From the NCBI GenBank assembly GCA_963768055.1, contig CAVYGN010000002.1, forward strand, positions 192,001 to 256,000: a stretch of DNA of 64,000 nt. The letters are read 5' to 3'. Position numbers and translations under genes: made by a program. This document shows positions 10,887 through 33,733 of this stretch, in pieces. This stretch comes from an uncultured Spirochaetota bacterium (GTDB lineage: Bacteria > Spirochaetota > Brevinematia > Brevinematales > JAOACQ01). The notes under the pieces are model-generated. The model ran no database searches and was not told where the DNA came from. It saw only the letters and a program-made list of their open reading frames with translations. Within the stretch, counting starts at the first letter, position 1. Each line of letters starts with the position of its first letter.

Positions 10887-11154
10887 ATTAAAGATAATAT
10901 GCAACCCAATTTATGAAGTAAATTTTTTTACGCGCTGTATTCACAAGCTTGAACTGCAACGCTTTAAAACTGTCGCAAGCGCTGATTGAATTCTTTTTTT
11001 AATAAAGAAATTTTTTTTATAAATATGGGATTATTAAAATATAACGAGCAGCCTCAGTTAAGCGCTTGCTCCAGTTTTTCAGCGGCAGTTCTTACACTTG
11101 CTCATAACGCGCGTAAAAAAATTAACTTCAAATAACCTACATATTGTCTTTAAT
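10887..11154 (+). repeat. Long imperfect palindrome, A-type copy 1
   Basis: TGAAGTAAATTTTTTTACGCGC...GCGCGTAAAAAAATTAACTTCA stem with further nested stems; homologous to the copies at 13620 and 33176. Confidence 0.85.
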
Positions 11155-11206
11155 TCGGAAGGGATGGGATTGAGACTTTCTGGATGCTGATTTTCGATGG
11201 CAGTAA

Positions 11207-11316
11207 TGTCATTTGGAGGAGCGAAGCTCCGAGAAATCTTGCGATGGGAAAGATTTCTCCCCGCCCTGATGGGGCGAGATAAACCCTTACAGGATAAACA
11301 CTGCATTCGAAATGAC
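11207..11316. repeat. REP-like palindrome (GTCATT...GAGAAATCT / AGATTTCTC...AATGAC type)
   Basis: TGTCATTTGGAGGAGCGAAGCTCCGAGAAATCT...AGATTTCTC...TTCGAAATGAC; a partial second copy starts at 13939. Confidence 0.7.
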
Positions 11317-11359
11317 GAAATTAACAAGACTGCAAAATGGCAAGTTATTGCTTTTTCCA

Positions 11360-11613
11360 GCCGATTCAAATACTATATTTTTTTGAAACAATTTTTTTGC
11401 GAGCTCTTACGAAGAATGCATAAGAGCTGCCGACGAAAAACGGCAGAGCCCCGCCTTCATTAATATTATTTTTTTAATTTTTTACTAAAATTAAAAAAAT
11501 TAAAATAAAGAGGGCGGGACAGTCGTTTTGTGTCGATGCAGCTCAAGCATTCGAGTTAAGCTCGCTAAAAAAATTGTTTCATTAATAAGCCCGTATGTTG
11601 TTTGAACGGCCCC
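11360..11613 (-). repeat. Long imperfect palindrome, B-type copy 1 (inverted relative to A)
   Basis: TGAAACAATTTTTTTGCGAGC...GCTCGCTAAAAAAATTGTTTCA; homologous to 33451-33733; the reverse complement aligns to A-type arms. Confidence 0.85.
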
Positions 11614-11686
11614 TTTTGACGAACAATTTTATTTTGATTATTTTAAATTAGAATAAATAAGCGATCCGCATTGATGGAGGTATAAG

Positions 11687-12775
11687 ATGAATAATCTGAA
11701 AAAGATTTCCGTTTATATCGCATTACTTCCCCTTTTCTTTGGATGCGGTATGACAATTGTAAAAAACGACGATCTGGCAAAACTTCAAACGAACAACAGC
11801 AATTTGATAACCGAAAATCAGGGTTTAAAGGACGACCTTCAGTCTCAGAAAGACCAGGTAGCCTCCCTGACAGCGGAAAACGACAGTTTCAAGCACCTGA
11901 TCGATTCGACAAAGGACAATCTCGGAAAACAGATCGATGAACAGAAATCGGCTAACAGCAATCTTACACTAGAAAATAAAGATTTACAAAAAGAAATTGA
12001 CGCCCAGAAAAGCCAGATATCTTCTCTGCAGGACGCCAGGGATACCCTTCAGAAGCAGCTGGACTCCCTTTCCATGGAAATCACGAACCTGAGCAATATG
12101 GTTGATTCGACAAAGGGGAATTTAGGGGCGCAGATAGATAGTATGAAGGCCGATATTAAAACAAGAGACCAGACAATCGACTCACTTACCGGGGAGATCA
12201 GCAATAAGAATGCAGATATTGCCTCATTGAGGCAAAATATCAAAGATATTTCAGCTGAAAAGGACAAGCTTTTAACCCAAAAAGATATCGAGATGTCAAA
12301 CCTGGCAATGACTTCCACAAACCTCATAAAACAGATGCAGGATGTTATCAATTCCGGCGATTTGAAGATCCGGCAATTAGGAAATGAGCTTAATATTGAT
12401 TTCAAGGATAAGATATTTTTCGACCTTGGAAGCGCGGATATCAGGAATAACGGCAAGAAGGTTTTGAACGAACTGGTCAATGTCCTTAAAACCGTCAAGG
12501 ACAGGCAGATAAGGGTCGAAGGCTATACCGATAATGTACCTATATCAGACCAGTATAAATGGAAATTCCCCTCCAACTGGGAACTTTCAACTTTAAGGGC
12601 GACGACTATCGTTCGGTATCTTCAGTCAAGAGGGGTCGATCCCTCTTTGATGAAAGCGACAGGTTACGGCGAGTTTAATCCCATAGCGCCGAATGACACT
12701 GAGGCTAACCGCGCTCAGAACAGAAGGATAGTCATTCTTCTCGTACCGCTGGACGAAAGAGCGCGATTTAAATGA
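11687..12775 (+). CDS. OmpA/MotB-family peptidoglycan-binding lipoprotein with a long coiled coil
   Basis: Lipobox FFGC; heptad region; FDLGSA, VEGYTDN, NWELSTLRA, NRRI. Confidence 0.9.
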   Translation: MNNLKKISVYIALLPLFFGCGMTIVKNDDLAKLQTNNSNLITENQGLKDDLQSQKDQVASLTAENDSFKHLIDSTKDNLGKQIDEQKSANSNLTLENKDLQKEIDAQKSQISSLQDARDTLQKQLDSLSMEITNLSNMVDSTKGNLGAQIDSMKADIKTRDQTIDSLTGEISNKNADIASLRQNIKDISAEKDKLLTQKDIEMSNLAMTSTNLIKQMQDVINSGDLKIRQLGNELNIDFKDKIFFDLGSADIRNNGKKVLNELVNVLKTVKDRQIRVEGYTDNVPISDQYKWKFPSNWELSTLRATTIVRYLQSRGVDPSLMKATGYGEFNPIAPNDTEANRAQNRRIVILLVPLDERARFK

Positions 12776-12782
12776 GGCTGTT

Positions 12783-13619
12783 ATGAAAGTAGGCTTGATA
12801 TTGATGATAGCGTTTATATTTTCAACCTGCTTTCTGTTTTCACAGGATGTCAATGTTATACTTACCAACGGCACTATAATAAAGGGAAACATGATAGGAA
12901 AAACCGCCGATTCAATAGTGATAGAGGGAAAAGACAATAAGGCTCAAGCTATAAATATAACAGAGATACAGGCTGTTTTTGACGCCGCAAACGGTAATCA
13001 GATCGATCTGTCGCCCGCACCGGTCATACAGGAAAGGTCTGCCGTTTACCGCCCCAGAGAACCCCTGCTGAACGGCCCTAAGAATGCTTTTGCTTTAGAT
13101 CTTATCGATCTTGCTTTAGGGTCTGTAAGAGTTTCATATGAACATTCTTTATCGGACTGGTTTTCATTGAAAGCAGAAGGGGCGTACAGCCCTAACTATT
13201 TCTGGTACAACGGGATCAGTTTCTGGTCTGCGGCTTTATTCGGCAGGTTTTATTTCGGATACAGTTCATGGTATAGAAACCGGACAGGCGGTTTGACCGG
13301 GCCGTTCATCGAAGTGGGGGCAGGCGCCGAGGCCGCAACTATAAATTATTCATATTCGGATCCGTACGGATCTTACCAGATAAACGGGAATTTCCCTATA
13401 GCTCCCATGATCAGGTTCGGTTTCGGCAATAAGATCGTATTCGGAAACGGGAGCGGCATCTTTATAGAACCTCATTTCGGCTACGAGATATCACTAGGCT
13501 ATTGGAATTACAATTATACCGGTACCGGAATATATTCGGATTATTCATACGACTTCCCCTATTTTCAGGGTTTCGGAGAATCGTTCTACTATGGGCTGGA
13601 TTTCGGGTATGCGTTCTGA
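12783..13619 (+). CDS. Putative outer-membrane beta-barrel protein
   Basis: Signal peptide; alternating aromatic/Gly strands; C-terminal FGYAF. Confidence 0.7.
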   Translation: MKVGLILMIAFIFSTCFLFSQDVNVILTNGTIIKGNMIGKTADSIVIEGKDNKAQAINITEIQAVFDAANGNQIDLSPAPVIQERSAVYRPREPLLNGPKNAFALDLIDLALGSVRVSYEHSLSDWFSLKAEGAYSPNYFWYNGISFWSAALFGRFYFGYSSWYRNRTGGLTGPFIEVGAGAEAATINYSYSDPYGSYQINGNFPIAPMIRFGFGNKIVFGNGSGIFIEPHFGYEISLGYWNYNYTGTGIYSDYSYDFPYFQGFGESFYYGLDFGYAF

Positions 13620-13897
13620 GGGCCGACCAGATTAATATGCGAACATCTCTATGAAGTAAATTTTTTTCCGCGCAGTATTCGACAGCTTGAGCCGCTAAGA
13701 CTCAAAACAGCAGCAACCGTTGATAGAATTCTTTTTTTAATAAAGAAATTTTTTATTCTCTATAAGAATGAATTAATTATAATGAGTATCTCGGATAAAC
13801 GTTTGCTATGCTGTTTTTCGCCTTGCGTCTCTACACTGTCTAATAAGGCGCGAAAAAAATTTACTTCAAATAGTGTCGTATATTGTCTTTAATTCGG
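13620..13897 (+). repeat. Long imperfect palindrome, A-type copy 2
   Basis: ATGAAGTAAATTTTTTTCCGCGC...GCGCGAAAAAAATTTACTTCA; begins immediately after the upstream stop codon. Confidence 0.85.
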
Positions 13898-13938
13898 TGG
13901 AATAAAAAGGAAAGCAATACAACATTATTCGCTGGCTA

Positions 13939-13988
13939 TGTCATTTTGAGGAGCGAAGCGTTTATCCCCGTAGGGGGACGAGAAACCT
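13939..13988 (+). repeat. Partial REP-like element
   Basis: TGTCATTTTGAGGAGCGAAGCG...GACGAGAAACCT, similar to the left arm at 11207. Confidence 0.55.
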
Positions 13989-14039
13989 GGCTTCGGCGAG
14001 GACACAAACACCCTTCGGGCATAAACACTTTCTCATATT

Positions 14040-14240
14040 GTTCGATAAAAATTTATTTTCGAATAGTGGTTTTTACTACCGGTACCAGATGTACTGGCAA
14101 TCCGGAAGGATTCCAATATTTTTACAATATTATTATTTTACGTATTTGGATCATGCTCCTTCACCGAGTGCTTTTCCTGCCCCTTCTCCAACGTCCTGGC
14201 CAGCTCCGGGACTTATTTTCCGGCAGTGGCAATCTTAATT
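14040..14240 (-). ncRNA. Candidate structured non-coding RNA (unassigned)
   Basis: Directly downstream of a sigma70-type promoter; long-range pairing of 14220-14227 with 14075-14082 and inner stems; no credible ORF on this strand. Confidence 0.4.
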
Positions 14241-14246
14241 TTTAAC

Positions 14247-14275
14247 AGTATATTTTATGGTCAAAGAAAATTCAA
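14247..14275 (-). promoter_or_regulatory. sigma70-type promoter facing away from dus
   Basis: TTGAAT-17nt-TATACT on the minus strand. Confidence 0.6.
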
Positions 14276-14481
14276 GTCTTTTTTTGCAATTTATTTGCAA
14301 TTTGACCAAAATACTTATTTGCCAAAGTAAGCGGATACCTGCTTTTAAAATCAAATATATTGATATTATAAAAAGGATAGCATTTTAAAAATATCTCCAC
14401 GCCTCTGTGTCTCTGTATAAATCTCCCCGTATCCCCGGTGTCCATTGCCACTTTGCAGTAAAAATGCTATAATTACCCCCT

Positions 14482-15474
14482 ATGACAAACAAGGAACGGC
14501 AATACATCCACCCTGTCAGGGTTGGAAATATCGAGATACAGAATAACATCTGGCTCGCGCCCCTGGCGGGATATTCGAATAAGGCCCTGCGGCTCTTCTC
14601 TTATAAATTCGGGGCGGGATACGCTGAAACGGAGATGGTAAGCCTGGAAGGCCTGCACAGGGATAACAAACGGACCTGGAATTACCTTGACCTGGAAGGC
14701 GAATATCAAACTACCGTTCAGCTTTTCGGGAAAAATGAGCCGAAAAAATTTTATGAAGTATCGAGGATGATGCAGAAAAGGCTCCCGGTTAAAATTATCG
14801 ATATAAATTTCGGCTGCCCCGTCCGAAAGGTGATCAGGACCGGCGCCGGATCGTTTCTTTTGAATTATCCTCATATTATGGGCGATATAGTAAAAGCCCT
14901 TAAGGACAGCGGCGTAATAGTATCGGCCAAAATACGTTCCGGTTACGACAGTGAAAATCTTGAAGAAACGGTCCCTGTTCTCGATAAATCCGGGGCTGAT
15001 ATTATCATTGTTCACCCCCGCCTCGCCGTGCAGTTTTACAATGGAAAAGCCGACTGGAATAAAATATTGAAAGCCCGGCAAATGACAGGAAAACTTTTAA
15101 TAGCGAGCGGAGATATCGTGACGCCTGAAGACGCCCGGAAGGTACTCGAAACGACGGGGGCCGACGCTATTATGATCGGCCGCCGGGCTGTAGGATCGCC
15201 TTATATTTTCAAACAAATAACCGATTATCTTAAGAATGGGGTCTATTCTTCCTACACTCTTGACGATATCAAGGAAATTATGCGGCAATTCGCCGCGCTG
15301 TATACCGGCTTAATTAAAAATGACAGCATTATCCCTATAAGGTCCACTCTGATACAATACGTCAGAAATTATAAGAACTCAAAAGATGTCCGGCATAAAC
15401 TTTCTGCTATAAAAAACAGCTATGAACTTGAAAGCGTCCTCGATACATGGCAATACGATCCTGAGGATAAGTAA
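14482..15474 (+). CDS. dusB: tRNA-dihydrouridine synthase (DusB-like)
   Basis: LAPLAG, QLFG, DINFGCP, KIRSG, IMIGR. Confidence 0.9.
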   Translation: MTNKERQYIHPVRVGNIEIQNNIWLAPLAGYSNKALRLFSYKFGAGYAETEMVSLEGLHRDNKRTWNYLDLEGEYQTTVQLFGKNEPKKFYEVSRMMQKRLPVKIIDINFGCPVRKVIRTGAGSFLLNYPHIMGDIVKALKDSGVIVSAKIRSGYDSENLEETVPVLDKSGADIIIVHPRLAVQFYNGKADWNKILKARQMTGKLLIASGDIVTPEDARKVLETTGADAIMIGRRAVGSPYIFKQITDYLKNGVYSSYTLDDIKEIMRQFAALYTGLIKNDSIIPIRSTLIQYVRNYKNSKDVRHKLSAIKNSYELESVLDTWQYDPEDK

Positions 15475-15559
15475 TCCCATAGACTTGTCCTGCGGATATT
15501 TGATTAATTCTCAAAAGTATTATATATTTATCGCTATTATTCATACCCGGAGGAATGTT

Positions 15560-17137
15560 ATGAGAAAAATAAATACAATCAATTTAATAGCCATGGGGAC
15601 GGTTCTGACTGCTTTTATAATATCTGTGTCCGGCTGTTCAAAAGACGCCAGCACTATAGCGGTTTACGGCAGCGGGCAGAATGCCCGGAACCTCACAGTC
15701 GGGGAAGTAAAATCAACTATGGAGAGATACGCGTTAAGATTCGGCAATGATTTCATTACCAACCGGGATTGGCAGAAAGATATAATTTTCAGGGCTTTCA
15801 TCGCTCCGGAAATCGCTGTCAAAGACAAAATTGAAAAAGGATACACTAACTCCCCTGAATTCAAGGAATCTTTTGAAAAAGAATATAAAAGGAACGAATT
15901 GGGCCTTACAGCAAAGAAAGGTTATGATTTTTTTACAAACCAGGCTAAAAACGATCAGAAAGAGACCTATGAAGTAGCTCATCCCGTCCATATATTGTTT
16001 ACTTACAGCCGCATCACAAATATCGATTCCATCCGGGTAACAACCATTGTCACGAACGGCGTCAAACAGCCTGTGACAAATCATATCACTATCCAGACCA
16101 ACCTGTCGGATAAGGAATATAGCGATATGGTAAAGGAGAAGTTATCTTCAGCGATGGATATTATCAAAAAGCTGAAGTCCTCCGGAGATCAGCAGAAAGA
16201 GTTCGAAAGCCTGGCCTCGAATGTTTCGGAAGAAGATAACGGCTTGATCCCGCGGGGTTCCAAGCCCAAGGAATATGAAGACGCGGTTTTTTCGGCTAAA
16301 AAACAAGGCGTCCTGGATAAACCCGTCTCTACCGATGAAGGCTGTTATGTAATATTTATTAAGGCCCCGGCCGCCCAATTGACCATGTCAAAGATCGAGC
16401 AGGAGGACGGCAAGGAAAATTTCCGGCGGCTTGAACAGACCCTTGATGAACAATATTATGAAAAATCGAAGAACAATAATATAAAAGAATTTTATTCATT
16501 GGACTATAATAAAAAAACAGCGACCATTAACGGGAAAGAATATAAAATCTCCGAAATACCTGAAAATGAAGTTGTAATTGAAATTTTCGGCAAGCAAATA
16601 ACATGGAAGGATTGTATCGATAATTTTCTTATATTCGATCCTTCTTTTGATAAAAAAATTACAATCGACAGTTTTATGAATATTACAAATCTAATTAAAA
16701 AATTACTGTTCTTTACCGAGTTCGCCGGTAAACAAGGAATCGGAAAAGATCCGAAATTCCTGGAGGAATTGACAAAACAGAAACAGGAAATTTCTAAAAA
16801 GCTTGTTTTAGAAAGTTATAAAATGGAACTGGTCTCCAATGTGAATTCCAAAGTCGAATCGGCGATAACCCCGAAAGCTGTCATGGAATATTATGAAAAA
16901 AACAAACAGGATTTTACTAAACCCCTTAACGGTAAAAACGTGCAACTGAGCTTTGCAGAGGCTAAACCTGCCGTTACAGAAGCTTTGAAAAGAAAGTGTT
17001 TAATGGAAGCCAGCAAGCAATGGAAAGAGGATTTGATAAAGAAAACTATGGTCACTTATAAAGACAGCGGCCTCAATGACCTTAAAGAGCTCGAACTGGA
17101 CCAGATTAAAAACATGAAAGATTTCAAGCAAAAATAA
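15560..17137 (+). CDS. PpiC/PrsA-like foldase lipoprotein
   Basis: GGAGG then ATG at 15560; lipobox VSGC; HILF, FESLA...SE and KPVSTDEG parvulin-like remnants. Confidence 0.65.
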   Translation: MRKINTINLIAMGTVLTAFIISVSGCSKDASTIAVYGSGQNARNLTVGEVKSTMERYALRFGNDFITNRDWQKDIIFRAFIAPEIAVKDKIEKGYTNSPEFKESFEKEYKRNELGLTAKKGYDFFTNQAKNDQKETYEVAHPVHILFTYSRITNIDSIRVTTIVTNGVKQPVTNHITIQTNLSDKEYSDMVKEKLSSAMDIIKKLKSSGDQQKEFESLASNVSEEDNGLIPRGSKPKEYEDAVFSAKKQGVLDKPVSTDEGCYVIFIKAPAAQLTMSKIEQEDGKENFRRLEQTLDEQYYEKSKNNNIKEFYSLDYNKKTATINGKEYKISEIPENEVVIEIFGKQITWKDCIDNFLIFDPSFDKKITIDSFMNITNLIKKLLFFTEFAGKQGIGKDPKFLEELTKQKQEISKKLVLESYKMELVSNVNSKVESAITPKAVMEYYEKNKQDFTKPLNGKNVQLSFAEAKPAVTEALKRKCLMEASKQWKEDLIKKTMVTYKDSGLNDLKELELDQIKNMKDFKQK

Positions 17138-17143
17138 AGGCTG

Positions 17144-18727
17144 TTATTTCACGCGCTTTTTTAATAATTCTTCATAATTGATTATGTTGGTATCGGAAGG
17201 AAAGAGTTCAAGGCCCTTTTCAGCTATTTCCAGAGCTTTATTATAGTTCCTGTACCTCATTTCTCTATAAATGTTCTGATAATAAAAGTATTGAAAGTTC
17301 GAAATAGTGGATTCATTAGAAGGGTCGGTTTGCATGCTTATCTGGGCGTAATCGTTTCCTTTTTCAAAATTACCCTTTCTAAAAAAATAAATCGCGGTTA
17401 GTTCCGCTATGCCGGCCATGTCGCTTATTAGAACTTTTGATTGGGGAAATATGGCAAGGCCGTTGGATATAATTTCCATTCCCCTGTCCGGATTACCGTA
17501 ATAGTTAAATTTCATCCCTGTCTGGCTGTAATAATTTTCAAGAATAGTATCAAAATAATCGTTTTTCATCAATCGATACCATTTCAGCATAAGCTCTTCG
17601 CCTTCAGGATATTTTCTCCAATCATCAATAAGTTTCCTGCTTAGAAGGTTATATCCATTTATCATCAGGACCCTGATATTATCATACCTGGATTTTTCAG
17701 CAAGCGCCTTTTTACCGATCTCATAAGCTTTCAGGAAATCATTGTCATGATTTATCACTTTTGTAAATATCTTAGTATAAATATCCATTTCATACTCGTC
17801 ATTTCTCCCGGCAAGGAGAATGTATTTGTCCATTTCAGCTACAGCCCTTTCACAAAAGCCCGATTCGATAAGGACATTGAGATATTTATTGAGTATATAG
17901 AAATAATTGGTTAAATACAGATTTTTAAGCGGAAGATGGAGTACGGCCTCTTCGAGAACTGAAAGGGCCTCTGAATATTCCTTCTTTGTATCCGAAAGAT
18001 AAAGAGAGTATCCGGTTATCGCTTTCGCCAGATTCGTATGCATATTCTTTAAATCGGGATCGATGGCAATAGAACGCAGCGCGTATTGATACGAATATTC
18101 ATATTGTTTAGATAAGTTTGCCCGCTCTGAAAGATCTTCATATATATAGGCCAAAAGACTTTTTTTAGCAGCATATTCAGTGAGGCCCGGGCCTCGGTCA
18201 ATTCCGCTCGAGTCTATGTCAAATCCCGCCGGATCAAAGGCGTTGACAAGGATATCAACCTTTTCAATGGAAAGGATCGAATAAACATTGGTCCCGTCTA
18301 AAATGCACTTGCACGAAAATCCCTGATCCTCCATGAGGCTGTTAAAAAGGATCGCGGCTGAAAGAGGATTATAAAGGCCCTTTTTTAATAATAATTCAAA
18401 TGTAGAATCCTGATCTGCGGCTTTTACCATTAACCGGGTGTGCATAAGGTTAAAAATGAGTTTTGAAACCTCGATGGGATTTTCAGGCAAACTCCCGGCG
18501 GAAGAGAATCCCGCCTCGAAATTAGATATACGGTCAAGGCTGTTCTGTAAAAGACTGCCTTTCATTCCGGAGGCTAAAAGAGCCCCTTCTTTAAGACTAA
18601 AAGAATCGGGATTAATAATAAGCAGGTATTCCTTTGAATTCGTTTCAAGGGATAGAAATTTCGAGATAAAGGAATAGACCTCCGTTTGCAGTAAAATAAA
18701 GAAAATTACCAGAGACAAGATTTTCAA
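17144..18727 (-). CDS. Exported TPR protein with a degenerate transglutaminase-like domain (paralog of the next gene)
   Basis: Colinear similarity to 18741-20363 (FISKFLSLETNSKEY vs FTSKFLAIDTNSLEY; AYEIGKKALAEK identical). Confidence 0.75.
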   Translation of the reverse strand: MKILSLVIFFILLQTEVYSFISKFLSLETNSKEYLLIINPDSFSLKEGALLASGMKGSLLQNSLDRISNFEAGFSSAGSLPENPIEVSKLIFNLMHTRLMVKAADQDSTFELLLKKGLYNPLSAAILFNSLMEDQGFSCKCILDGTNVYSILSIEKVDILVNAFDPAGFDIDSSGIDRGPGLTEYAAKKSLLAYIYEDLSERANLSKQYEYSYQYALRSIAIDPDLKNMHTNLAKAITGYSLYLSDTKKEYSEALSVLEEAVLHLPLKNLYLTNYFYILNKYLNVLIESGFCERAVAEMDKYILLAGRNDEYEMDIYTKIFTKVINHDNDFLKAYEIGKKALAEKSRYDNIRVLMINGYNLLSRKLIDDWRKYPEGEELMLKWYRLMKNDYFDTILENYYSQTGMKFNYYGNPDRGMEIISNGLAIFPQSKVLISDMAGIAELTAIYFFRKGNFEKGNDYAQISMQTDPSNESTISNFQYFYYQNIYREMRYRNYNKALEIAEKGLELFPSDTNIINYEELLKKRVK

Positions 18728-18740
18728 GCCAAGCCCTCCG

Positions 18741-20363
18741 CTATTTTATCTTTTTGCGTAAATAATCCCTATAATACGTTAGTTTAGGGTCATTAGGAAA
18801 AAAAGAAAGTCCTTCTTCCGCAATAGAGAGAGCCTTCGAATAATCTTTATTTTCAATCTCTTTTGAATCGTAAGTCCTGTATGTAATAATCAGGTTGGAT
18901 TTCAAAGCCTGGCTATCCGGATTTGCCTCGAGTCCGATTTTCAGGAATTTAATGGAGTTGTCATAATCTTCCCTGCCGAAATATACATTTGCGGTATTGC
19001 CGGTTATATAAGCTATATTGTTTTTAATAAGCCGGGATTTCGGGAAAAAAGCCAGTCCTTTTTTCATGATATCGATTGCCTTAAGAGGATCGCCGTAATC
19101 GTAGAATTTCAAACCCACCTGGTTATAATAGTTTTCGAGGATGGAATCAAAGTATGTGTTTTTGCCAAGTTCATGCCATTTCAGAATAAAATCTTCACCT
19201 TTCGGGTAATCCTGCCAGCTCTTCTCAAGATTCAGGCTTAGAAGATTCATACCGCTTATCATAAGACTAACGTAATTATCGTCATTCGGTTTTTCGGCGA
19301 GAGCTTTTTTACCAATTTCATAAGCCTTTTCATAATCTCCATCATGATTTATCAGCCTGTAAAGGATCCTGGAATAAAGGTTTTCCGTTATATTGTTGTT
19401 CGTACCTGCAAAAGCCTCCGAACTGTCCAGTTCGACAAACGCCTTATCATACCGGGAAGAATCGATAAGGCTGTTAAGATACTTGTCCAGTACATAAAAA
19501 TAATTTGTAAAGAAAAAGTCCTTTTGCGGTATATTTTCTATGGCCTCCCTAAGTATTGAAAGGGAGAGCGTGTAATCGCTTTTTGTGTCTGCCAGGTAAA
19601 CACTGTAAGTTGTATATGCGGCTGAAACATTGGAATAAATAAACTTTCCATCAGGAAAAATTGCCCAGGATTTCAAAGCGTCCTGAAACGATTCGTATAT
19701 CCGTCCGGATTTGAAATTAAAATATGACATATTCGCATAAGTATAAGCCAGGAGGCCTTTCTTGCCGACGATTTCCATAATGGATGGATCGTGCGAATAA
19801 GAAAATCCTGTTAATTTTTTAAACGTTTCCTGGGCTTCCCTGTTCGTACCTATATCATAACCGTACGGACTGGTGTTTTCAACATCGATTTCCCTTCCTT
19901 CTTCATTCAGGAGGGTATAGGCATGTGAAGGCAGGATAACCGCTTTGGATTCCACTCCGAAATCCTCGAGAATACTGTTGTAAAGAAGTGTAGAAGAAAG
20001 ACAGTTGAAACGGCCGGTATTAATAATCGAATCGAGAGTCGTCTGGGATTCTTCATATTCTTTTAAAAACTTTTTATGTATTTGAAGGAATAAAAACTTT
20101 GTGAGTTCCTCCGCATTTCCCCGGGTATTTTTTTCATTCGATATCCCGGCCTCAATATTTGAAATCCTGTCAATGTATAATCCCAGAGAATCTTCATTAA
20201 TTCCCGATATAATAAGCGCGCTTTTTTCCAGGGGAAATGCTTCCGGATTCTCTATTACCTGATATTCAAGCGAATTAGTGTCGATCGCTAAAAACTTCGA
20301 TGTAAACGGATACATGCCTGCATAAAAACAAATCAGGATAAAAATCAGGAATGATTTTTTCAT
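18741..20363 (-). CDS. Exported TPR protein with a transglutaminase-like domain
   Basis: Signal peptide; FNCLSSTLLY...LPSHAY...IDVENT Cys-His-acid motif; TPR-like helices. Confidence 0.75.
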   Translation of the reverse strand: MKKSFLIFILICFYAGMYPFTSKFLAIDTNSLEYQVIENPEAFPLEKSALIISGINEDSLGLYIDRISNIEAGISNEKNTRGNAEELTKFLFLQIHKKFLKEYEESQTTLDSIINTGRFNCLSSTLLYNSILEDFGVESKAVILPSHAYTLLNEEGREIDVENTSPYGYDIGTNREAQETFKKLTGFSYSHDPSIMEIVGKKGLLAYTYANMSYFNFKSGRIYESFQDALKSWAIFPDGKFIYSNVSAAYTTYSVYLADTKSDYTLSLSILREAIENIPQKDFFFTNYFYVLDKYLNSLIDSSRYDKAFVELDSSEAFAGTNNNITENLYSRILYRLINHDGDYEKAYEIGKKALAEKPNDDNYVSLMISGMNLLSLNLEKSWQDYPKGEDFILKWHELGKNTYFDSILENYYNQVGLKFYDYGDPLKAIDIMKKGLAFFPKSRLIKNNIAYITGNTANVYFGREDYDNSIKFLKIGLEANPDSQALKSNLIITYRTYDSKEIENKDYSKALSIAEEGLSFFPNDPKLTYYRDYLRKKIK

Positions 20364-23926: not shown

Positions 23927-23929
23927 ATA

Positions 23930-24700: not shown

Positions 24701-25613
24701 TGCAGTTAAGGGCCATCAGATTTTCCAGAATGGCGGTGTTTTTATGTTTCTCAAGGGTCCATAATGGAGCTACAAGCTTTTCTTCCGGGCATTCTCCAAA
24801 AAGTCTGTGAATAACGGTGTCAGCGGGAATTTTCGGCAGTAATTTCAGCAGGAGGCCGATGTATTGGTCCCTCTCCAGCAGTTTAAGCCTTTTATTATTA
24901 TAATATTTCTCGAGGACCGTATCCTTTTCAACATATAAATGATGAAACTTAAAACCATCAACACCCAGATCCGTTAAAACGGCCGCGCTGTGAAGCATAT
25001 CTTCTTCAGTCTCGCCGGGCAGTCCGAAGATAAGGTGGGCTGCAACATGTATCCGTCCGCTCATTCCTGTCAAACTTATAGCTCTGGCCGTGTCCTGGGC
25101 AGTATGACAGCGGTTGATCTTCTTAAGAGTATTATTTTTCATACTCTGAGCCCCGTATTCGACTATAAGAAAAGTTTCTTCGGACAGGCGGTTAAACATA
25201 TCAATTTTTGCCTGATCGACACAATCAGGCCTGGTTCCTATCGCTATTCCGCAAATTCCAGGCGCCCTGAGCGCGCTTTTATAGAGGCTGTATAATTCTT
25301 CAACCCCGGAGTATGAATTGGAATAAGCCTGAAAATATGCAATGAACTTTTTAACCCCGTATTTTTTCCCGATGATTTTACTGCCTGAATCTATCTGATC
25401 AGCTATTGAAAGCGATGGGATTACATACCCGGCCTTAGCCCCGGATTCACCGCAGTAAATGCACCCTCCGACGCCCTTTGTACCATCCCTGTTAGGACAG
25501 GTAAATCCCGCATCAATCGATATCCTGTAAACTTTTTCACCGAATTTTTTTTTAAGAAAAGAATTGAAACTGTAATAATTAAGGCCCGCAGTCATGGTAA
25601 TGGCGGCAGTCAT
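24633..25613 (-). CDS. Radical SAM protein of the YhcC/YtqA type
   Basis: GFTCPNRDG...GGCIYC, YFQAYSN, GTRPDC. Confidence 0.9.
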   Translation of the reverse strand: MTAAITMTAGLNYYSFNSFLKKKFGEKVYRISIDAGFTCPNRDGTKGVGGCIYCGESGAKAGYVIPSLSIADQIDSGSKIIGKKYGVKKFIAYFQAYSNSYSGVEELYSLYKSALRAPGICGIAIGTRPDCVDQAKIDMFNRLSEETFLIVEYGAQSMKNNTLKKINRCHTAQDTARAISLTGMSGRIHVAAHLIFGLPGETEEDMLHSAAVLTDLGVDGFKFHHLYVEKDTVLEKYYNNKRLKLLERDQYIGLLLKLLPKIPADTVIHRLFGECPEEKLVAPLWTLEKHKNTAILENLMALNCIRQGMDRKEIPCEENLPSPSQG

Positions 25614-26728
25614 GCGGCTTTCACGAGCGCCAGTATTAATTTTACCGTGTTTTCAAGGTCATCGATCTCGACATATTCCTCAGTTGAATGGACATTCATC
25701 ATGCCTACAGCCAGATTGACAGAGGTCAATTTGTTCTGATTGTAAAGATTCGTGTTGCTTCCCCCCCCTGTTCTTTCAAAACGCGGGACCAGGCCGATCG
25801 ATTCAATAGCCGACTTCGCGAATTTAATTATTTCATCATGTTTTGAAAAATTGAATCCCTTGTACAACTCTTTAAATTCAAGAACTATATCGAGGGCATC
25901 CTTCCTGTTTTCCTCAACCGCAGCAGATATCTCGTTTTTCAAGCGTGTAATCTCATAAATGTTATGAGACCTGAATTCGCCCTTTATAGTGCAATCCTCG
26001 GGAATGATATTAATAGCCTGCCCTCCATCGATCACCCCAACATTTGCGACGGTATCCTTGTTTAATTTTCCCTGAGGCAATTCTTTTATAATTTCAGCGG
26101 CTATCTTGATCGCGTTTATGCCATGTTCCGGCGCTATTCCGGCATGACTTGCCTTTCCCTTGACCCTTACATCATAACCGAAATGATGCGGGGCGGCCAC
26201 AACTACGCCTCCGACTTTACCATGAGAATCAAGAATAAAACCGAAGTCCGTTTTAATCTTTGAAAAATCGAGGTAATGAACGCCGGTAAGCCCTATTTCT
26301 TCCGCAGATGTAAATAAAAAATAAACGTCTCCATGACCGGCTTTCGATGATATTATTTCTTCAAGGGCTATGATCATAGCCGCCACTCCGGCTTTATCGT
26401 CACCGCCGAGAATCGTGCTTCCATCGCTTTTAACCCTGTCATCCGTTACAACGGGTTTTATACCGATCCCGGGTTCAACTGTATCAACATGCGAATCAAA
26501 AAAAATGCTTTTCCTATTTTTTTCATTCGAACATAATTTGACTACCAGATTGCCCGAATTCTCGCCGATTTCATCTATACTATAGGGAATGTATTCTATT
26601 TCAACAGGTAAATCCGACAACCTGTCTTTTAAATAACAAAACATCTTTTCTTCCTTTAACGAGAGGCTGTCTATTTTTACTATTTTTACAAACTCTTCGA
26701 CCACCCTATTTCTGATAGTTATTTCCAT
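25610..26728 (-). CDS. M20 family peptidase (peptidase T-like)
   Basis: SHVDTV, GGDDKAG, EEIG, HAG, HSTEE. Confidence 0.9.
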   Translation of the reverse strand: MEITIRNRVVEEFVKIVKIDSLSLKEEKMFCYLKDRLSDLPVEIEYIPYSIDEIGENSGNLVVKLCSNEKNRKSIFFDSHVDTVEPGIGIKPVVTDDRVKSDGSTILGGDDKAGVAAMIIALEEIISSKAGHGDVYFLFTSAEEIGLTGVHYLDFSKIKTDFGFILDSHGKVGGVVVAAPHHFGYDVRVKGKASHAGIAPEHGINAIKIAAEIIKELPQGKLNKDTVANVGVIDGGQAINIIPEDCTIKGEFRSHNIYEITRLKNEISAAVEENRKDALDIVLEFKELYKGFNFSKHDEIIKFAKSAIESIGLVPRFERTGGGSNTNLYNQNKLTSVNLAVGMMNVHSTEEYVEIDDLENTVKLILALVKAA

Positions 26729-27398
26729 TGATACCCCTTAAATACTCTTCGGCCATAATAAGATCGAAAGGCGTTGTGATTTTTATATTATGCTCTTCTC
26801 CGTCAATAATATCGGCTGCCATACCCTGCATCTCAAACAAGCGGGAATCGTCTGTAAAACATGTCAAACCCCTGTCTCCGGCCAACATATGAGCCTTATA
26901 TATAAGGTCGAATTTAAAGACCTGCGGAGTTTGAAGTTCGTAAGCCTTGTTCCTGTCAATATAACCTGAAATCGTTTCAGCATCATCCGATAGGACAAGC
27001 GTGCCGCGAACTTTGACTGCAGGAACAGCGGAACCTTTATCGGCAGCATGGCGAATGCATTTTTTGAGTAATGATAATGAAAAGAGCGGCCTGACGCCGT
27101 CATGAATGACAACAATGTCGATATTTTTTCCCGATAAACGATTGAGCCCGCTTAACACAGAGAGCTGCCTTGAAAGCCCTCCTTCCGCCACTTCTATCGA
27201 ACTTCCGGCAATCAGTTTTCGGGTTTCATCCATCCAGTCCCTGTTCGCCACTAGAACCATATAATCCACGGCATCCTTAAATTTGCCAATACTGTATTCA
27301 AGGATGCCTTTGCCTTGAAGTTTTAAAAATTGTTTGGGGATCGCGGAACCAAACCTTGCCCCGGTTCCGCCGGCCAGAATAATGCCGCCGACTTTCAT
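26706..27398 (-). CDS. ispD: 2-C-methyl-D-erythritol 4-phosphate cytidylyltransferase
   Basis: LAGGTGARFG...PKQF, IHDGVRP, QTPQ, NIKITTPFD. Confidence 0.9.
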   Translation of the reverse strand: MKVGGIILAGGTGARFGSAIPKQFLKLQGKGILEYSIGKFKDAVDYMVLVANRDWMDETRKLIAGSSIEVAEGGLSRQLSVLSGLNRLSGKNIDIVVIHDGVRPLFSLSLLKKCIRHAADKGSAVPAVKVRGTLVLSDDAETISGYIDRNKAYELQTPQVFKFDLIYKAHMLAGDRGLTCFTDDSRLFEMQGMAADIIDGEEHNIKITTPFDLIMAEEYLRGINGNNYQK

Positions 27399-27402
27399 AT
27401 GC

Positions 27403-27762
27403 TTATTTGTTTGAACCGGGCCCCATATTTGACAGGATATTAAGTACGTTATTCGTAGAAGCGTTTGTATTCACCGTTATCCCAGGCTGCTGTGTCCCGG
27501 TTTCCTGAGTCTGGCGTGAACGGGTGTAATTATTATATTCCTTGATTTTAATATAACTCATCAAAAAGGCGGTTACAAAAAATATACCTACCAGCCACTT
27601 CGTGAAATTCACCAGCACTTCGCTGGTTTTCGCCCCGAATGCTCCAAGGGTGAGATCGCTGCCGAATACTCCGGATTGGGCCCCGCTGCCTGATTGGAGT
27701 AGAATGACCGGAACCATCAATACTATATCTAAAATAAAGATTACCATTAAAAATGAGAACAT
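27403..27762 (-). CDS. secG: Preprotein translocase subunit SecG
   Basis: Two TM helices; ILLQ...G...FG; location next to apt. Confidence 0.8.
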   Translation of the reverse strand: MFSFLMVIFILDIVLMVPVILLQSGSGAQSGVFGSDLTLGAFGAKTSEVLVNFTKWLVGIFFVTAFLMSYIKIKEYNNYTRSRQTQETGTQQPGITVNTNASTNNVLNILSNMGPGSNK

Positions 27763-27801
27763 AAATCCTCCCTATTAGACCGCAAAAAAATTTTCAGCTT
27801 T

Positions 27802-28311
27802 TCAACTTTTCAACAATGAAAATACGGGGTATTTGATATTTTCCCTGCCGTTCAAGCCCTCAAGTTCAATCAGAAAAACGCATTCAACGATCTTTCCGCC
27901 CAGGCGTTCCACGAGTTTAATCATCGCCCCGGTTGTGCCTCCTGTGGCAAGAAGATCGTCAATTATAAGAACATTATCGCCGGCTGAAATCGAGTCCTTA
28001 TGGACTTCAATCGCCGCTTCGCCATACTCAAGAGCGTATTTCTGAGAGACGGTCTCAGCCGGAAGCTTCGACGGTTTTCGCGCTGGAACGAATCCCGCAC
28101 CAAGCAGATAAGCCAGAGGAGCCCCCACAATAAAACCCCTGGATTCAGGTCCCACGACTTTATTGATATTTTTACCCCTGCAATGCGAGTACAGGTCGTC
28201 TATACTGCTTTTAAAGGCCGAATGGTCTTTCCATAACGTCGTTAAATCTTTAAACAATATCCCGGCCTTGGGAAAATCAGGCACTTCCCGGATATATGAG
28301 TTATAATCCAT
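27802..28311 (-). CDS. apt: Adenine phosphoribosyltransferase
   Basis: PDFPKAGILFKD, ESRGF, LEYG, IDDLLATGGT. Confidence 0.97.
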   Translation of the reverse strand: MDYNSYIREVPDFPKAGILFKDLTTLWKDHSAFKSSIDDLYSHCRGKNINKVVGPESRGFIVGAPLAYLLGAGFVPARKPSKLPAETVSQKYALEYGEAAIEVHKDSISAGDNVLIIDDLLATGGTTGAMIKLVERLGGKIVECVFLIELEGLNGRENIKYPVFSLLKS

Positions 28312-28458
28312 GGCTTCCCCCTGATAAAAATCTCACCGTTTATTTTACAATATTTATTAAATTCTGTAAATTAATGGTTCAACTATCTTTACACTGATGT
28401 AATTTGAAATATTTGGAGAAGTGATAAGAAAATCTTCAGACGAAATCAGGGGAAGTAT

Positions 28459-29184
28459 TTATCCAAGTTCAAAATAGATATTGCTCAGGGCGGATAACGC
28501 CGCCGTATCTGTTTTAAGAATCATGCCCCCCAGGCTCGCGCTGTGAAAGCCGGCGGTTATTAATCTGTCGGCCTCACCGCAGGAAATTCCTCCTTCAGGG
28601 CCTATTAACAGTTCTATCTTTTTGGCTTTGCTGCCCGATAGAATCTTTTTAAGAGTTTTTTCTTCCTCCAGCTCCCATAAAAGGATTTTCATCGAATCTT
28701 TTAAAAGCATGCCGCCGATATTCTCGATTGAGACGGTATAATGTATAGACATCTGACTGCTTCGCCCGATCTGTTTCATTGTTTCAAGAGCAATCCTTTC
28801 CCATCTTGCGATCTTTTTAAGCCCTCTCTCCTGGGAGAGTTTGGAAATCGTCCTTTCTGTTACGACCGGGACTAACTCATTGACCCCCATCTCGCATGAC
28901 TTTTCCACGATCCAGTCAAATTTTCCTCCCCTGGGAAGGGCCTGGTAAAGGCGTACAAATGTCAACCTTCCCGCCGAAGGGTGTATTTCCAATATTTCCA
29001 GATTAACAATATCCTGCCTTATATCTTTTATCCTGACTTTAAGATTGTTTCCCCTTCCATCAGTCGCCGGTATTATATCACCCAGGTTCTTCCTTAAAAC
29101 ATGAGTTAAATGGTGAACATCGCTTCCGGCGATAAAAGCCGTTATACCATCGATATTTTCATCCGGAATAAAAAATTTTCTCAC
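28459..29184 (-). CDS. rsmE: 16S rRNA (uracil-N3)-methyltransferase RsmE
   Basis: HHLTHVLR, EKSCEMGV, IGPEGG, LKTDTA; GTG start inferred. Confidence 0.9.
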   Translation of the reverse strand: MRKFFIPDENIDGITAFIAGSDVHHLTHVLRKNLGDIIPATDGRGNNLKVRIKDIRQDIVNLEILEIHPSAGRLTFVRLYQALPRGGKFDWIVEKSCEMGVNELVPVVTERTISKLSQERGLKKIARWERIALETMKQIGRSSQMSIHYTVSIENIGGMLLKDSMKILLWELEEEKTLKKILSGSKAKKIELLIGPEGGISCGEADRLITAGFHSASLGGMILKTDTAALSALSNIYFELG

Positions 29185-29200
29185 AATAAATATCTCAATA

Positions 29201-29791
29201 TCAATAATTATATGATAAAAGCTCAAAATACGCCCTGGGATGCTCGCAAACCGGGCATTTTACCGGCGCCTCGGCCGATTCTAATATATACCCGCAGTTC
29301 CTGCATTTCCACAGGACCTTTTTATTCTTTTTGAATACTTCCCCGCTTTTGAGGTTTTGAGCCAGTTTTCTATAACGCTCCTCATGACTTTTCTCAATTT
29401 TAGCTATGCCGCTAAAAGTCCTTGCTGCGTCCATAAAACCTTCCTGCTCGGCTGCTCCTGCAAATTCAGGGTAGAGTTTTGTCCATTCCTCATGCTCTCC
29501 GTCCGCCGCGCTTTCCAGGTTTTTTATTGTATCGTCAGAAAAAGCGATCGGAAAAGCCGCTATGATGTCCTGCATGCAGTCGGTATTTACGTTAGTACAT
29601 AGCTGTTTATAAAAAAGCTTTGCATGTTCTTTTTCATTTTCTGCTGTTTCCATAAAAATCCCTGCGATCTGCTGAAGACCTTCCTTACCGGCGCAGGAAG
29701 AATAAAATGCGTACCTGTTCCTCGCCTGTGATTCTCCGGCAAAGGCCTTCATAAGATTTCCGGCTGTTTTTGAATCCTTGAACTGTTTCAT
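29201..29791 (-). CDS. rbr: Rubrerythrin
   Basis: [33 protein letters not shown]...CPVC. Confidence 0.95.
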
Positions 29792-29808
29792 CTCTTCCCC
29801 CTTCTTTA

Positions 29809-30999
29809 CTATATAATCGAAAGCCCTTTATGCTTATGCTCGATCGCACCGGCGAGCTCGTCCAGGGCCCTGAATTCCTTTTCCCCGGGATATCCCTTCG
29901 CGATGACGGGCGTTAAAACTTCGGCTTTTACATTGTAAAGCATCGCCTGGATCTGTTCCAGGGCTTTTCCTCCCCATCCGTAGGAACCGATTACGGATAC
30001 AAATTTCGTCTTCGGCCTGAGCAGGTTATAAAGATAAACTGCGTATGCTACGGAAGGATGCATGCCGCCCAGGACAGTTGGAGCGCCGACAATAACTGTA
30101 GCGGCGTCTGTCACTGCCATAGCGAGTTTGCCCACGTCAGTGACGGTAAGGTCGAAGGGTTTAACATTGATCCGTTTTTCTATAAGCGCGTCTGTCAGAT
30201 AATCGACCATGACCCTGGTACTTCCATGCATCGATATAAATGGAATGATTACGCTATTAGCGACCCTATCGGAAATCCAATCTTTATAACAGTTAATTAT
30301 GTATTCCGGGTTTTTATAAACTGCGCCATGACTGGGCGCTATGATATTAATGTCCAGCGAAAGGATCTTATCAAAATTTCCGGAGATATTCGACCTGAAG
30401 GGATACATTATCTCCGAGAAATATCTGAAAGCCGGCTCCCTTACCTCCTCCTCCTTTCCCTTTTCAATGAACAGGCGGCTGTCCGCTATATGGGAACCGA
30501 ATAAATCGCAGCTGAAGAGAATTTTGTCCTCTTTATTGTAAGTTAACATAGTTTCAGGCCAATGCACCCAGGGAAATATTATGAACTCAAGGGTTTTATC
30601 ACCCAGGGAAAGAGTTTCACGATCCTCTATAACTATAAATTTATCCTCGCTGACCTGAAGAAGGTCCATAAGGAACGCTTTACATTTAGCATTAGTAACC
30701 ACCTTTGCTCCGGGAAACATGCCCAGAAGACCGGGTATGCACCCGGAATGGTCCTGTTCGGCATGATTTGCAATGATATAGTCAATGTTTTTAATTTTAA
30801 GCTTTTTCAGGTTGGCGTAAATTTGATCGGCCGTTCCAGGATCGACGGTGTCTATAAGCGCTGTTTTATCAGTCCCCTTAATAATATAAGAATTATAACT
30901 GGTCCCGTCCGGAAGAGGGATAAGTTCGTCAAATAATCTTCTTCCCCAATCTTTGCCGCCGATCTCAAATATACCTTCTGTTAATTTTCTCGCCACCAT
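29809..30999 (-). CDS. fprA: Flavodiiron protein (FprA, A-type flavoprotein)
   Basis: [24 protein letters not shown], flavodoxin C-terminus GSYGW. Confidence 0.93.
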
Positions 31000-31003
31000 A
31001 TTT

Positions 31004-31702
31004 TTATTCCTTCTTAAACTCGTCTTTAGGGGCGCCGCATACCGGGCATAGCCAGTTTTCCGGTAAATCCTGGAAGCTGGTGCCGGGTTTTATCCCAGCA
31101 TCGGGATCGCCGGCGGCGGGGTCGTAAACATAACCGCAAACTTCACAAACATATTTTTCCATCCTGATATCCTCCTTTATAATTTTTTTATCATGAATAT
31201 TGACATAGGTCGGTGCAAATTTAGACGTTTTCCCCTTTTTAACGTCCCTGTAATAAGCATAAGTCAGAGGCTGGTCTTCCGTCAGGACCGCCGATTCCAA
31301 AAGATTGCCGATGAATATTGAATGGCTGCCCAGATCGACGCTCTTAAAAACTTCGCATACATAATAAGCGATCGAATAATCAAGGATTACTGGAACGCCC
31401 TTTTCCGCTATCTTAAAATTGACGCTTTCAAATTTATTGATTTCCCTCCCCGACCTGAACCCGAATTTCCCGAAAAATTCGAATGGAGCATCCTGTGAAA
31501 GGGCTGAGACTCCGTATAAACCTGAAGTCTCAACCATATTGTGTGTATAGGATTCCTTGTTTATTATAATCTGAAACGTCGGAGGTTCCGAATTTACCTG
31601 GCAGAAAGTATTTCCTAATAAACCGTTATACTTATTGCCCTCGAACGAGGTAAAAAGGTAAAGCCCGTATGTAACTTTAAATAAAGCTTCAATATCAACC
31701 AT
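31004..31702 (-). CDS. Flavin reductase-rubredoxin fusion (high-molecular-weight rubredoxin type)
   Basis: YGLY and GSHSIFIG flavin-reductase domain plus C-terminal [10 protein letters not shown]...WLCPVCG. Confidence 0.9.
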
Positions 31703-31761
31703 GTTATGAAAACCCTCCGAATTGATATTTTGATACGCAGAGTGAAATAAGTCAAGATTAA

Positions 31762-33039
31762 TTACGCCCTGGTTAGCATATTGAAAAATCTTTTTTTACT
31801 GTCTTCAAGAATGTTCATCATGTTTTTAAATATTTCTCCTTTGGATACAATTATGCGGGCGGTTCCTTCTTTAACCGCCTGCATCCCGACAGCCTCCGCA
31901 ACATGGGCAAAGGCTTCCAGGTCATAAACCGAAGGTATGATCCTTTCAGCAGATAATTCGGTTTCGCTTAAAAATCCGGACAAAGCCAGAGCCGCAGCCA
32001 GTTTCATCCCTTCTGTAACACTCCTGGCCCTGACGTCCAGGAGACCCCTGAAAATAGCCGGGAAACCCAGGCAATTGTTGACCTGATTGGGAAAATCACT
32101 TCTTCCGGTAGCTACTATGAACGCTCCGGCGGCATGAGCTTCATCAGGAAGGATTTCAGGGTCGGGGTTGGCCATTGCAAATATGACAGGTTTCAAGGCC
32201 ATACTTTTTATCATATCGAACGTGAGAGCCCCTTTCGCAGAAACTCCTATAAAAACATCGGCTTTATTGACTGCATCTGCAAGTTTCCCTCTTTCACCCC
32301 CGGGATTGGTCATTTTCGCGATATCTTCTTTCGAATGGTTCATATGCGATGACCTGCCCGAATATAAGACGCCTTCACGGTCGCACATAATTATATTCCG
32401 GGCTCCGTAAAAGATCAGAAGCTTTGCTATGGCGACTCCCGCAGCGCCGCTTCCATTTATTACTATTTTAACATCGCCGATGTTTTTCCCTGCAAGTTTA
32501 AGTGAATTTATTAGCCCGGCTAGAGTAACAATAGCCGTACCATGCTGGTCGTCATGAAAAACGGGAATGTCGAGTTCTTCAGAAAGCACTTTTTCAATCT
32601 CGAAGCAGCGTGGCGCGGATATATCCTCTAAATTTATTCCTCCCGCCCCGGAAGAGATCATTTTAACCGTATGAATTATCTCACCGGTATCCTGTGAGGA
32701 AATTATTATCGGATAGGCGTCAATTCCGCCGAAGATCCTGAATAACAGGGCCTTACCCTCCATAACCGGCAGGGAGGCCTTTCCGCCTATATTGCCGAGT
32801 CCCAGAACGGCGCTTCCATCGCTGACCACAAAAACCGTATTACCCTTTACTGTATATTCATAGACTTTTTCTTCATCCCCGCTGATCTCCATGCAGGGAA
32901 CAGCCACCCCTGGAGTATAGGCAAGAGACAATTCCCGCCTTGTTTCCACGGAAACTTTCGGGATTATTTCAATTTTTCCGTTTCCTATCCCGTTTTTCCT
33001 GTGATATTCAAGCGCCGCTGTTTCAAGATCGCTCATCAT
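31762..33039 (-). CDS. NAD(P)-dependent malic enzyme
   Basis: [44 protein letters not shown]. Confidence 0.95.
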
Positions 33040-33113
33040 AAAATAGCATTCTCCTAAAAAGTATAATAGAAACGCCCATAAGTTTAATTTGCAAGGGGGC
33101 TTTTGGCAAAAAA

Positions 33114-33172
33114 AGGACCGCTCAAACAATACCAGCTTTTATGGAGTCAATTTTTATCTTGCTGGGATTCGA
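33114..33172 (+). repeat. Truncated stub of the long-palindrome family
   Basis: GGACCGCTCAAACAATACC...ATGGAGTCAATTTTT...TTCGA resembles the first ~60 nt of the reverse-complemented B copies. Confidence 0.5.
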
Positions 33173-33175
33173 GAA

Positions 33176-33431
33176 GGGTCGAATCGATTAATATGCTAAT
33201 CTCTTTATGAAGTAAATTTTTTCCGCACTGTGTTCGATAGCTTGAGCCGCTAAGTCTCAAAACAGCAGTCCCGCCCTCTATTTTGATTTTTTTAATTTTA
33301 GTAAAAATTAAAAAAATAATATAAATGAAGGCGGGGCTTTCACTGTTTTTCACCTTGCGGCTCTACGCTATCTGCATAATGCGCGTAAAAAATTTACTTC
33401 TAACAGCTTTGCTTATTATCTTTAATTCGAC
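33176..33431 (+). repeat. Long imperfect palindrome, A-type copy 3
   Basis: ATGAAGTAAATTTTTTCCGCAC...GCGCGTAAAAAATTTACTTC; carries the CCCGCCC...GGCGGG central module. Confidence 0.85.
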
Positions 33432-33450
33432 AGAAGAGGAACTATACTTT

Positions 33451-33733
33451 CCCGTAGATTTAAATAATATACTTTTTTTGAAACAATTTTTTTAGCGAGT
33501 TCATTACGAAGAATGCGTAAGAGCTGCCGAGGAAAAACGGCAGGGCAAGCGCTTTAGCCGGGATCGTTCAGTAACCAATTGTAATTTATTAATGATATCA
33601 AGATAAGGTTCTTTATTAAAAGCATTCCATCAGCACTTGCAGCCGTTTTGAGTCGATGCAGCTCCAGTATTCGAGTAATGCTCGATAAAAAAATTGTTTC
33701 ATTAAGAAGATTGTATATTGTTTGAACGGCCCC
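33451..33733 (-). repeat. Long imperfect palindrome, B-type copy 2
   Basis: TGAAACAATTTTTTTAGCGAG...CTCGATAAAAAAATTGTTTCA...TTTGAACGGCCCC. Confidence 0.85.

Follow-up and report, generated by a model that had tools for sequence, protein, structure and literature searches.

The window analysed here, 64,000 nucleotides of an uncultured Spirochaetota bacterium (C2:192001-256000 of genome G000, whose contigs are designated C1 and C2), carries at two paired loci copies of a non-coding hairpin repeat family of ~275 bases that lie in opposite orientations. The tip of the hairpin occurs in a standard form, X, and a minority form, Y. Tip Y moved between arm subtypes, and it did so at a fixed position, the base of the inner helix. 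The explanation favoured here, to which we give about an even chance of being correct, is a one-way, fold-guided replacement of the tip, likely by template switching, within a single hairpin family. It is favoured because arms ~60% alike without a co-transferred marker argue against RecA conversion, and because slightly variable joins and the lack of a reciprocal product argue against a precise recombinase; homeologous gene conversion is ranked next, followed by reciprocal exchange.

Tip Y on non-sister arms

A profile (nhmmer) search of G000, which is 94.75% complete, returned 74 non-overlapping matches of the hairpin family in 60 clusters. Thirty-seven matches were near-full, three of which were left out for a truncated right arm, resulting in 34 copies for analysis. 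The initial annotation had distinguished two element types, A and B. Two families are ruled out by BLAST and alignment, as B proved to be the reverse complement of the family of A, and therefore, seen from its arms, X points the same way in copies A1 and B2, as does Y in copies B1 and A2. Tip X is present in 31 of the 34 full copies and tip Y in three (B1, A2 and the copy at C1:924615), with X in arm orientation in every full copy. Tip inversion was rejected, its sole candidate being one partial match to the X model (C1:831318), which was taken as a palindrome artefact. The three full-length genomic BLAST matches to Y all lie within arms.

At locus 1, copy A1 (10892..11159, forward strand; nhmmer model 11-280, its left end falling ~10 bases short of the usual one) carries X at 10976..11068, for which the X of C2:601253 is the closest (89%), and copy B1 (11361..11613, reverse strand; model 1-278) carries Y at 11449..11519. 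Both fold into hairpins, with z values of -9.4 and -11.5, respectively, and none of 200 shuffles was as good in either case. At locus 2, copy A2 (33176..33431, forward strand) carries Y at 33269..33336, the left join following the G at 33268 and the right join lying at G33336-C33337, and copy B2 (33463..33733, reverse strand) carries at 33546..33639 a diverged X that has no close relative, its best genomic match being 70%. All four tips are thus located where the initial annotation had placed them. Its description of the Y of A2 as nearly the exact reverse complement of the Y of B1 is equally accurate, since 33268-33338, aligned with the reverse complement of 11447-11520, shows 69 matches and five differences in 74 columns (93% identity). 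The arms of B1 and B2 are sisters (ultrafast bootstrap, UFBoot, 99 in the arm tree). In contrast, A1 and A2 belong to different arm subtypes, A2 sharing the subtype of copy A3 (13620..13900, forward strand, tip X), its closest arm relative in the genome. The spacers also differ, with 202 bases at locus 1 against 32 at locus 2. Because of the differing A1 and A2 arm subtypes and spacers, the two loci are not duplicates.

The three Y tips display pairwise identities of 0.93, 0.84 and 0.84, whereas the arms of the same three copies are 0.56-0.67 alike. The nearest arms of every Y copy carry X (B1-B2 0.84, A2-A3 0.82, third copy 0.90). In the arm tree, built on 183 arm columns and tested with 5000 replicates, a number that the program flagged as few, forcing the three Y copies together costs 161 log units (approximately unbiased test, AU, p 2.7e-10) and forcing B1 and A2 together costs 79 log units (AU p 1.8e-17). 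Monophyly of the Y copies being rejected, Y sits on non-sister arms of three subtypes and therefore requires at least two transfers in G000. As had been argued earlier, a single inversion cannot explain this movement of tips.

The switch of arm type is sharp on both sides of Y. Over the 20-25 columns flanking the joins, the Y copies are 0.88-1.0 identical to X copies of their own subtype and 0.48-0.80 identical to the other Y copies. Two positions before the left join lies an unpaired base that differs among the three Y copies (T, A and G) and agrees each time with the nearest arm relative, and one G common to all Y copies remains between that unpaired base and the join. The G before the tip pairs with the C after it in the consensus fold, and the two joins therefore lie opposite each other in the fold. 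The modelled exchange point has an asymmetric loop beneath it and lies one pair inside the inner helix, and the fixed position claimed in the initial annotation is upheld for the Y tips.

Proposed mode of tip replacement

In the favoured explanation the tip of a folded single strand would be replaced one way. On reaching the base of the inner helix, a copying enzyme would take another copy as its template, and it would come back at the paired position, which would leave the joins facing each other. The fold and not sequence homology would fix the joins, and the reaction would be copy-choice rather than cut-and-rejoin. Homeologous gene conversion, which is possible though unlikely, would instead have a break in the tip repaired from another copy, and the tracts would look sharp only through rejection of heteroduplex by diverged arms and through loss or re-homogenisation of copies whose arms do not pair. 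It is difficult to reconcile with arms that are just 56-67% alike in a genome where MutS, which suppresses recombination between strongly diverged sequences, is present. No donor marker was co-transferred in three arm backgrounds, including the unpaired base that pairing would not restore, and the SbcD_C family, a known hairpin cutter, has no match in the 94.75% complete genome. Conversion does agree with whole arms varying at one site between strains, with own arms pairing better than foreign arms (0.83 vs 0.69) and with the equality of G-T and A-C (74 vs 72), which is expected from arm-to-arm copying in DNA. It is also favoured by the scattered switch points of the X copies, where a copying model of 31 copies gave 35-103 apparent switches, many of which may be noise as there is no null model, and by the partial co-inheritance of arms and centres. 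Free assortment of arm and module, as predicted initially, is not what the genome-wide classification of copies revealed: a correlation between arms and X centres persists (Mantel r 0.25, p 0.0015), although the arm-centre correlation (-0.02 to 0.32) is weaker than that of arm segments among themselves (0.26-0.57).

The tip position is a slot, which may be empty or filled by a whole nested copy, a mini-hairpin or another hairpin repeat. One such nested copy, complete and with its tail, is enclosed at C2:181950-182560 by a left arm and a partial right arm complementary to it, the entire block forming one nested hairpin when folded. At five loci, read by eye, the left arm ends 6-10 bases into X and a new left end begins, four of these being in the same orientation and one running into a short copy. 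Single loci, also read by eye, have a mini-hairpin tip, have no X or hold a third repeat family described below, while in copies L014 and L075 of the related genome G009 another hairpin repeat follows directly after the first tip bases. Relative to the Y joins, those of nested copies are shifted by 4-8 bases, as is more readily expected of an imprecise process guided by the fold than of a site-specific enzyme. The entry of other small hairpin repeats into the same slot, and the nature of Y itself as a hairpin with GC-rich ends, would suit an independent 70-base mini-transposon that targets the hairpin and displaces X. This idea is already weakened and is very improbable, as Y is found only inside arms in its 3/3 full-length BLAST matches, its GC stem is similar to helix three in the full-length tips of genome G003 (copy L064) and insertion alone would not remove X exactly.

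The same sites were compared in close relatives through metagenome contigs, part of locus 2 being present in five runs, of which four and then three were compared. In run X2, record 7 joins the flank of A1 (30/30 letters, unique in G000) to a left arm 96% like that of A2, followed by X, and the contig of record 8 bridges an A2-type left arm and Y (33239-33336). In run X1, the unique flank at 33742, at the B2 site, continues in record 2 into 124 letters ending in Y; the Y piece breaks where the Y of B1 has two extra bases, and the arm is <92% identical to A2 or B2. Record 5 of the same run contains the right arm of A2 (5 differences in 94), with X before it as far as 33336 and another 3' flank after it, and the junction between the partial left arm upstream of A2 and A2 itself stops at 33267, without Y. 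A different right arm follows Y in runs X1 and X3. These contigs suggest that in relatives the B2 site held Y and the A2 site did not. A contig of run X4, a record matched by length, covers the right arm of A2, the spacer and the end of B2 and is preceded by an element tail, suggesting a nested copy in the tip of A2 at that site. Relatives thus hold different contents at persisting sites, meaning that the sites stay while their contents turn over and that the process is recent. A search for the Y-junction pattern in relatives was discarded, since its 3/3 matches were due to chance. Scans of sequence collections gave real matches in 3/9 cases for genome contigs (L024-L026), 0/3 for viral sequences and 3/11 for metagenomes.

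The reciprocal swap proposed in the initial annotation holds as regards the placement of the modules, but its reciprocity is conjectural. X of A1 and X of B2 have an identity of 0.637 (64% alike) and rank 435 of 465 X pairs, the X of B2 lies on a long branch among 32 X copies, and no donor could be assigned to it. A dedicated site-specific recombinase that cuts two folded hairpins and swaps their tips reciprocally, with A2 and B2 exchanged at locus 2, is accordingly doubtful, the X tips of A1 and B2 being among the least alike pairs and no displaced X matching a donor. Nested-copy joins at other bases, and only two tip types among 34 full copies with no cargo, tell against it as well. It would, however, account for joins that face each other across one base pair and for the run X1 contigs, with a Y piece at the B2 site that breaks at the two extra bases of B1's Y and an A2 left-arm junction without Y. 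For the X of B2, a place in A-type clades is not rejected (AU p 0.34-0.39), and one among its own arm relatives is marginally rejected (AU p 0.037, with the Kishino-Hasegawa, KH, and Shimodaira-Hasegawa, SH, tests not significant). The genome does contain 14 tyrosine-recombinase matches, the nearest lying ~16 kb from any copy and none within ~15 kb.

Other searches for a mobilising enzyme were negative. G000, at its 94.75% completeness, has no match to RAYT (Y1_Tnp), reverse transcriptase (RVT_1), Transposase_20, DDE_3 or SbcD_C, and neither IS110 nor IS630 was found. Among the 12 genomes of the host's taxonomic family that were compared (including G000, G003, G009, G001 and G002), Y1_Tnp occurs in five but is absent from the five named, of which G000, G003 and G009 are the richest in the hairpin family. 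None of the three multi-copy DDE_Tnp_1 elements has ends like those of the hairpin family, as a cognate insertion sequence (IS) would, three single DDE_Tnp_1 matches and other IS families lying outside this comparison, and no flanking repeats were seen by eye in 1.1 kb around a short GIY-YIG gene.

Repeat mis-assembly as the source of the whole pattern is hardly credible. The loci are known from the assembly alone and no contig of a relative spans one, but the copies are too diverged to collapse, with the Y tips of B1 and A2 differing at 5/74 columns, an independent contig (run X2 record 8) runs from an A2-type left arm into Y, and the third Y copy lies on the other contig.

Several observations weigh against one-way, fold-guided replacement. 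Only three Y copies exist, hence at least two events in G000, and the true donor arms of Y are unseen. A conserved AAAAC-GC-G patch at the left join, ~8/10 alike between subtypes, could prime homeologous repair. Among the X copies, 4.2 switches fall within 5 columns of module borders against 4.2 expected, again with no null model, which fits ordinary mosaicism; a fixed breakpoint as the general rule, as first claimed, is not borne out by these copies. The marginal rejection of B2's X leans towards an exchange into B2 too. The contigs of relatives are short, none spans a locus, and ≤30 loose letters are visible in them. The mechanism is deduced. A more far-reaching proposal, speculative and unlikely, is that of a structured single-strand mobile element with helices as modules, in which an enzyme of the host or of the element would cut straight across the folded hairpin at the inner helix base and join foreign tips back on without sequence homology. 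If true, one slot would see tips, whole copies and other hairpins come and go, new copies would be set at stop codons by the same machinery, and bacterial repeats would display a homology-free, fold-addressed recombination.

Anatomy, distribution and neighbours of the family

The covariance model of the family contains 30/45 pairs with two-sided change and matches 7/12 genomes of the host's taxonomic family, where G000, G003, G002 and G009 are rich in the element and G005, G006, G008, G010 and G011 are free of it; in a phylum sample, with 18 candidates scored per genome, it matches 2/121 genomes, both of the same taxonomic family. Relatives display a tiered hairpin comprising a variable outer part, a conserved core stem, a loop, a closing stem, a conserved loop, a variable third stem and an AT-rich tip, the centres measuring about 110 bases. 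X represents a shortened version. Because its GC stem resembles the third stem of L064, Y probably derives from a longer ancestral tip, one helix and loop having been lost on both arms. At C2:1719354 and 1724026 in G000, a small gene has a diverged Y-like tip behind it, and in G003 a long X-like tip occupies the same junction behind the homologous small gene. Both regions (C2:1714000-1725000 in G000 and L080, G003:C3:584000-602571) are cassette arrays after giant genes, whose units end in a small conserved gene followed by a hairpin-family copy; by eye, several transposase-like open reading frames (ORFs) interrupt the G003 array. The loops read by eye as tandem G-A on the right-to-left strand, which folds better in 24/34 copies and 10/11 copies of relatives. 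No strand bias by G-U was found, the equality of G-T and A-C allowing no RNA-versus-DNA distinction. A hammerhead-like core in X was considered and rejected, as by eye its bases covary as a stem.

The family is short, multi-copy, intergenic and non-coding, as are bacterial MITEs, the miniature inverted-repeat type of transposable elements, and it has inverted-repeat, if imperfect, termini, with 51 consensus arm pairs of which 83% are paired inside a copy. We infer a non-autonomous mobile repeat of MITE/ERIC-like type, moved by a postulated enzyme. No empty site that could reveal a target-site duplication was found, the orthologous sites of relatives holding other copies and the right end entering a variable tail. 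Nor did any of the 54 loci hold the cargo-bearing or autonomous form that the initial annotation had proposed to look for; an apparent gene-bearing centre at C1:472002-473626 is in fact made up of a left half that runs into the third repeat family and of a short copy distinct from it. Left ends lie ≤5 bases from a same-strand stop codon in 20/51 cases against ~4% by chance, for example at 13620, where A3 begins at the stop codon of ORF 12783-13619, and 20/51 face a gene start; they follow TAA, TAG, TGA or other sequence. The copies of the window sit between long ORFs. The excess of unpaired left arms over right ones, 24 against 5 (a few rows being misassigned), which would suggest 5'-truncated retro-copies, is not counted as evidence for them, since a good number of the left halves continue into the third family.

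The locus 1 spacer (11160..11360) comprises a purine-rich tail, a right-arm-like fragment and a hairpin of the third, REP-like GTCATTTCGA family, and has 46 genomic BLAST matches. This third family (11200-11335 in the window, with many genome sites) is found by eye ≤~70 bases past the right end of the element in 15/38 tails, and the mobile unit may be a longer composite. Directly 5' of A2, a partial left arm of a third subtype (33115..33173, forward strand; model 2-63) forms a junction that is unique in the window. Elsewhere in G000, remnants of 45-50 bases keep only the two element ends (C1:241967, C2:541349, C2:1092778 and C2:1400528), and optional mini-hairpins of 15-17 bases stand at mirror positions in the left or right arm (C1:146150, C2:182060, C2:1282307 and C2:873514). 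A second MITE-like family (e.g. C1:1599514 and C2:1806051) measures ~140-160 bases, has AGGGC...GCCCT termini, is often TA-flanked and counts ~40 copies (49 rows, some being reverse duplicates or chance matches) with optional mini-hairpins at a fixed internal position. The window also contains an ORF (1822-2880) that looks kelch-like by eye, being built of about seven diverged repeats of 140-156 bases, two tandem related ORFs, flagellin-like by eye (42701-44650, families D10 and D12), and 31-base inverted repeats (I10; 5211-5241 and 6237-6267) round ORF 5351-6205, possibly a small mobile unit.

Relation to known mobile repeats

A non-homologous tip on ~60%-alike arms provides a natural marker for the way in which ERIC-like palindromic repeats lacking a known transposase move and change, with exchange points recorded to a few bases and opposite each other in the fold; were ordinary conversion responsible, the family would still be a well-marked case of repeat mosaicism. 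Rfam gave no matches in the window at the gathering threshold, where only sub-threshold hairpins appeared (Flavo-1, 21 bits vs 42), and none at seven loci at E 0.05. The literature listings searched contained no description of this hairpin family or of tip exchange, although a precedent may exist in the primary ERIC literature. De Gregorio in 2005 reportedly described ERICs with internal insertions at fixed sites.

Recombination at integron attC sites takes place on a folded single strand, at a position fixed by structure. The hairpin family differs from this system in that no cassette array, adjacent integrase or cargo genes are found, both strands of the fold are rejoined, and the 54 loci are dispersed in both orientations and not in a tandem same-orientation array. 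With REPs and REPINs the family shares hairpin repeats and composite clusters, and the third family in the locus 1 spacer resembles the CGTC-tagged REPs, which the sections consulted describe from spirochaetes without a dedicated transposase (PMC3733652). It is not a REPIN/RAYT system, in view of the lack of Y1_Tnp in G000 and of arms far longer than REP units.

The passages available on ERIC/IRU, YPAL and related MITEs present them as non-coding, multi-copy, intergenic elements that form a long stem-loop near genes and for which those passages name no proven transposase, and they describe size variants of Correia elements produced by internal loss of a 50-bp segment (PMC2229807, PMC10969869, PMC2267715). 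As far as these passages extend, the hairpin family shares the non-coding, multi-copy and intergenic nature, the single long stem-loop, the nearness to genes, the lack of a proven transposase and the size variants by internal loss. In contrast to the elements described there, it measures ~275 bases instead of 127-168, lacks TA at both ends, and displays tiered helices, loops conserved across genera and a non-homologous tip moved between arm subtypes; its separation from ERIC, with ~127 bases and TA at both termini, rests on size and ends. The neisserial NIMEs, in the portion of their description used here, consist of conserved inverted flanks (dRS3) round exchangeable modules (RS) at syntenic sites that vary between strains, with a specific recombinase proposed; their dRS3 flanks are of 20 bases and near-identical, and >100 RS families occur in arrays (PMC1797815). 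The hairpin family is distinct from NIMEs in having diverged 90-base arms of one hairpin and few tip types. By analogy, it would work like the ERIC/YPAL-type MITEs and would resemble the neisserial NIMEs in its exchangeable inner modules at persistent sites.

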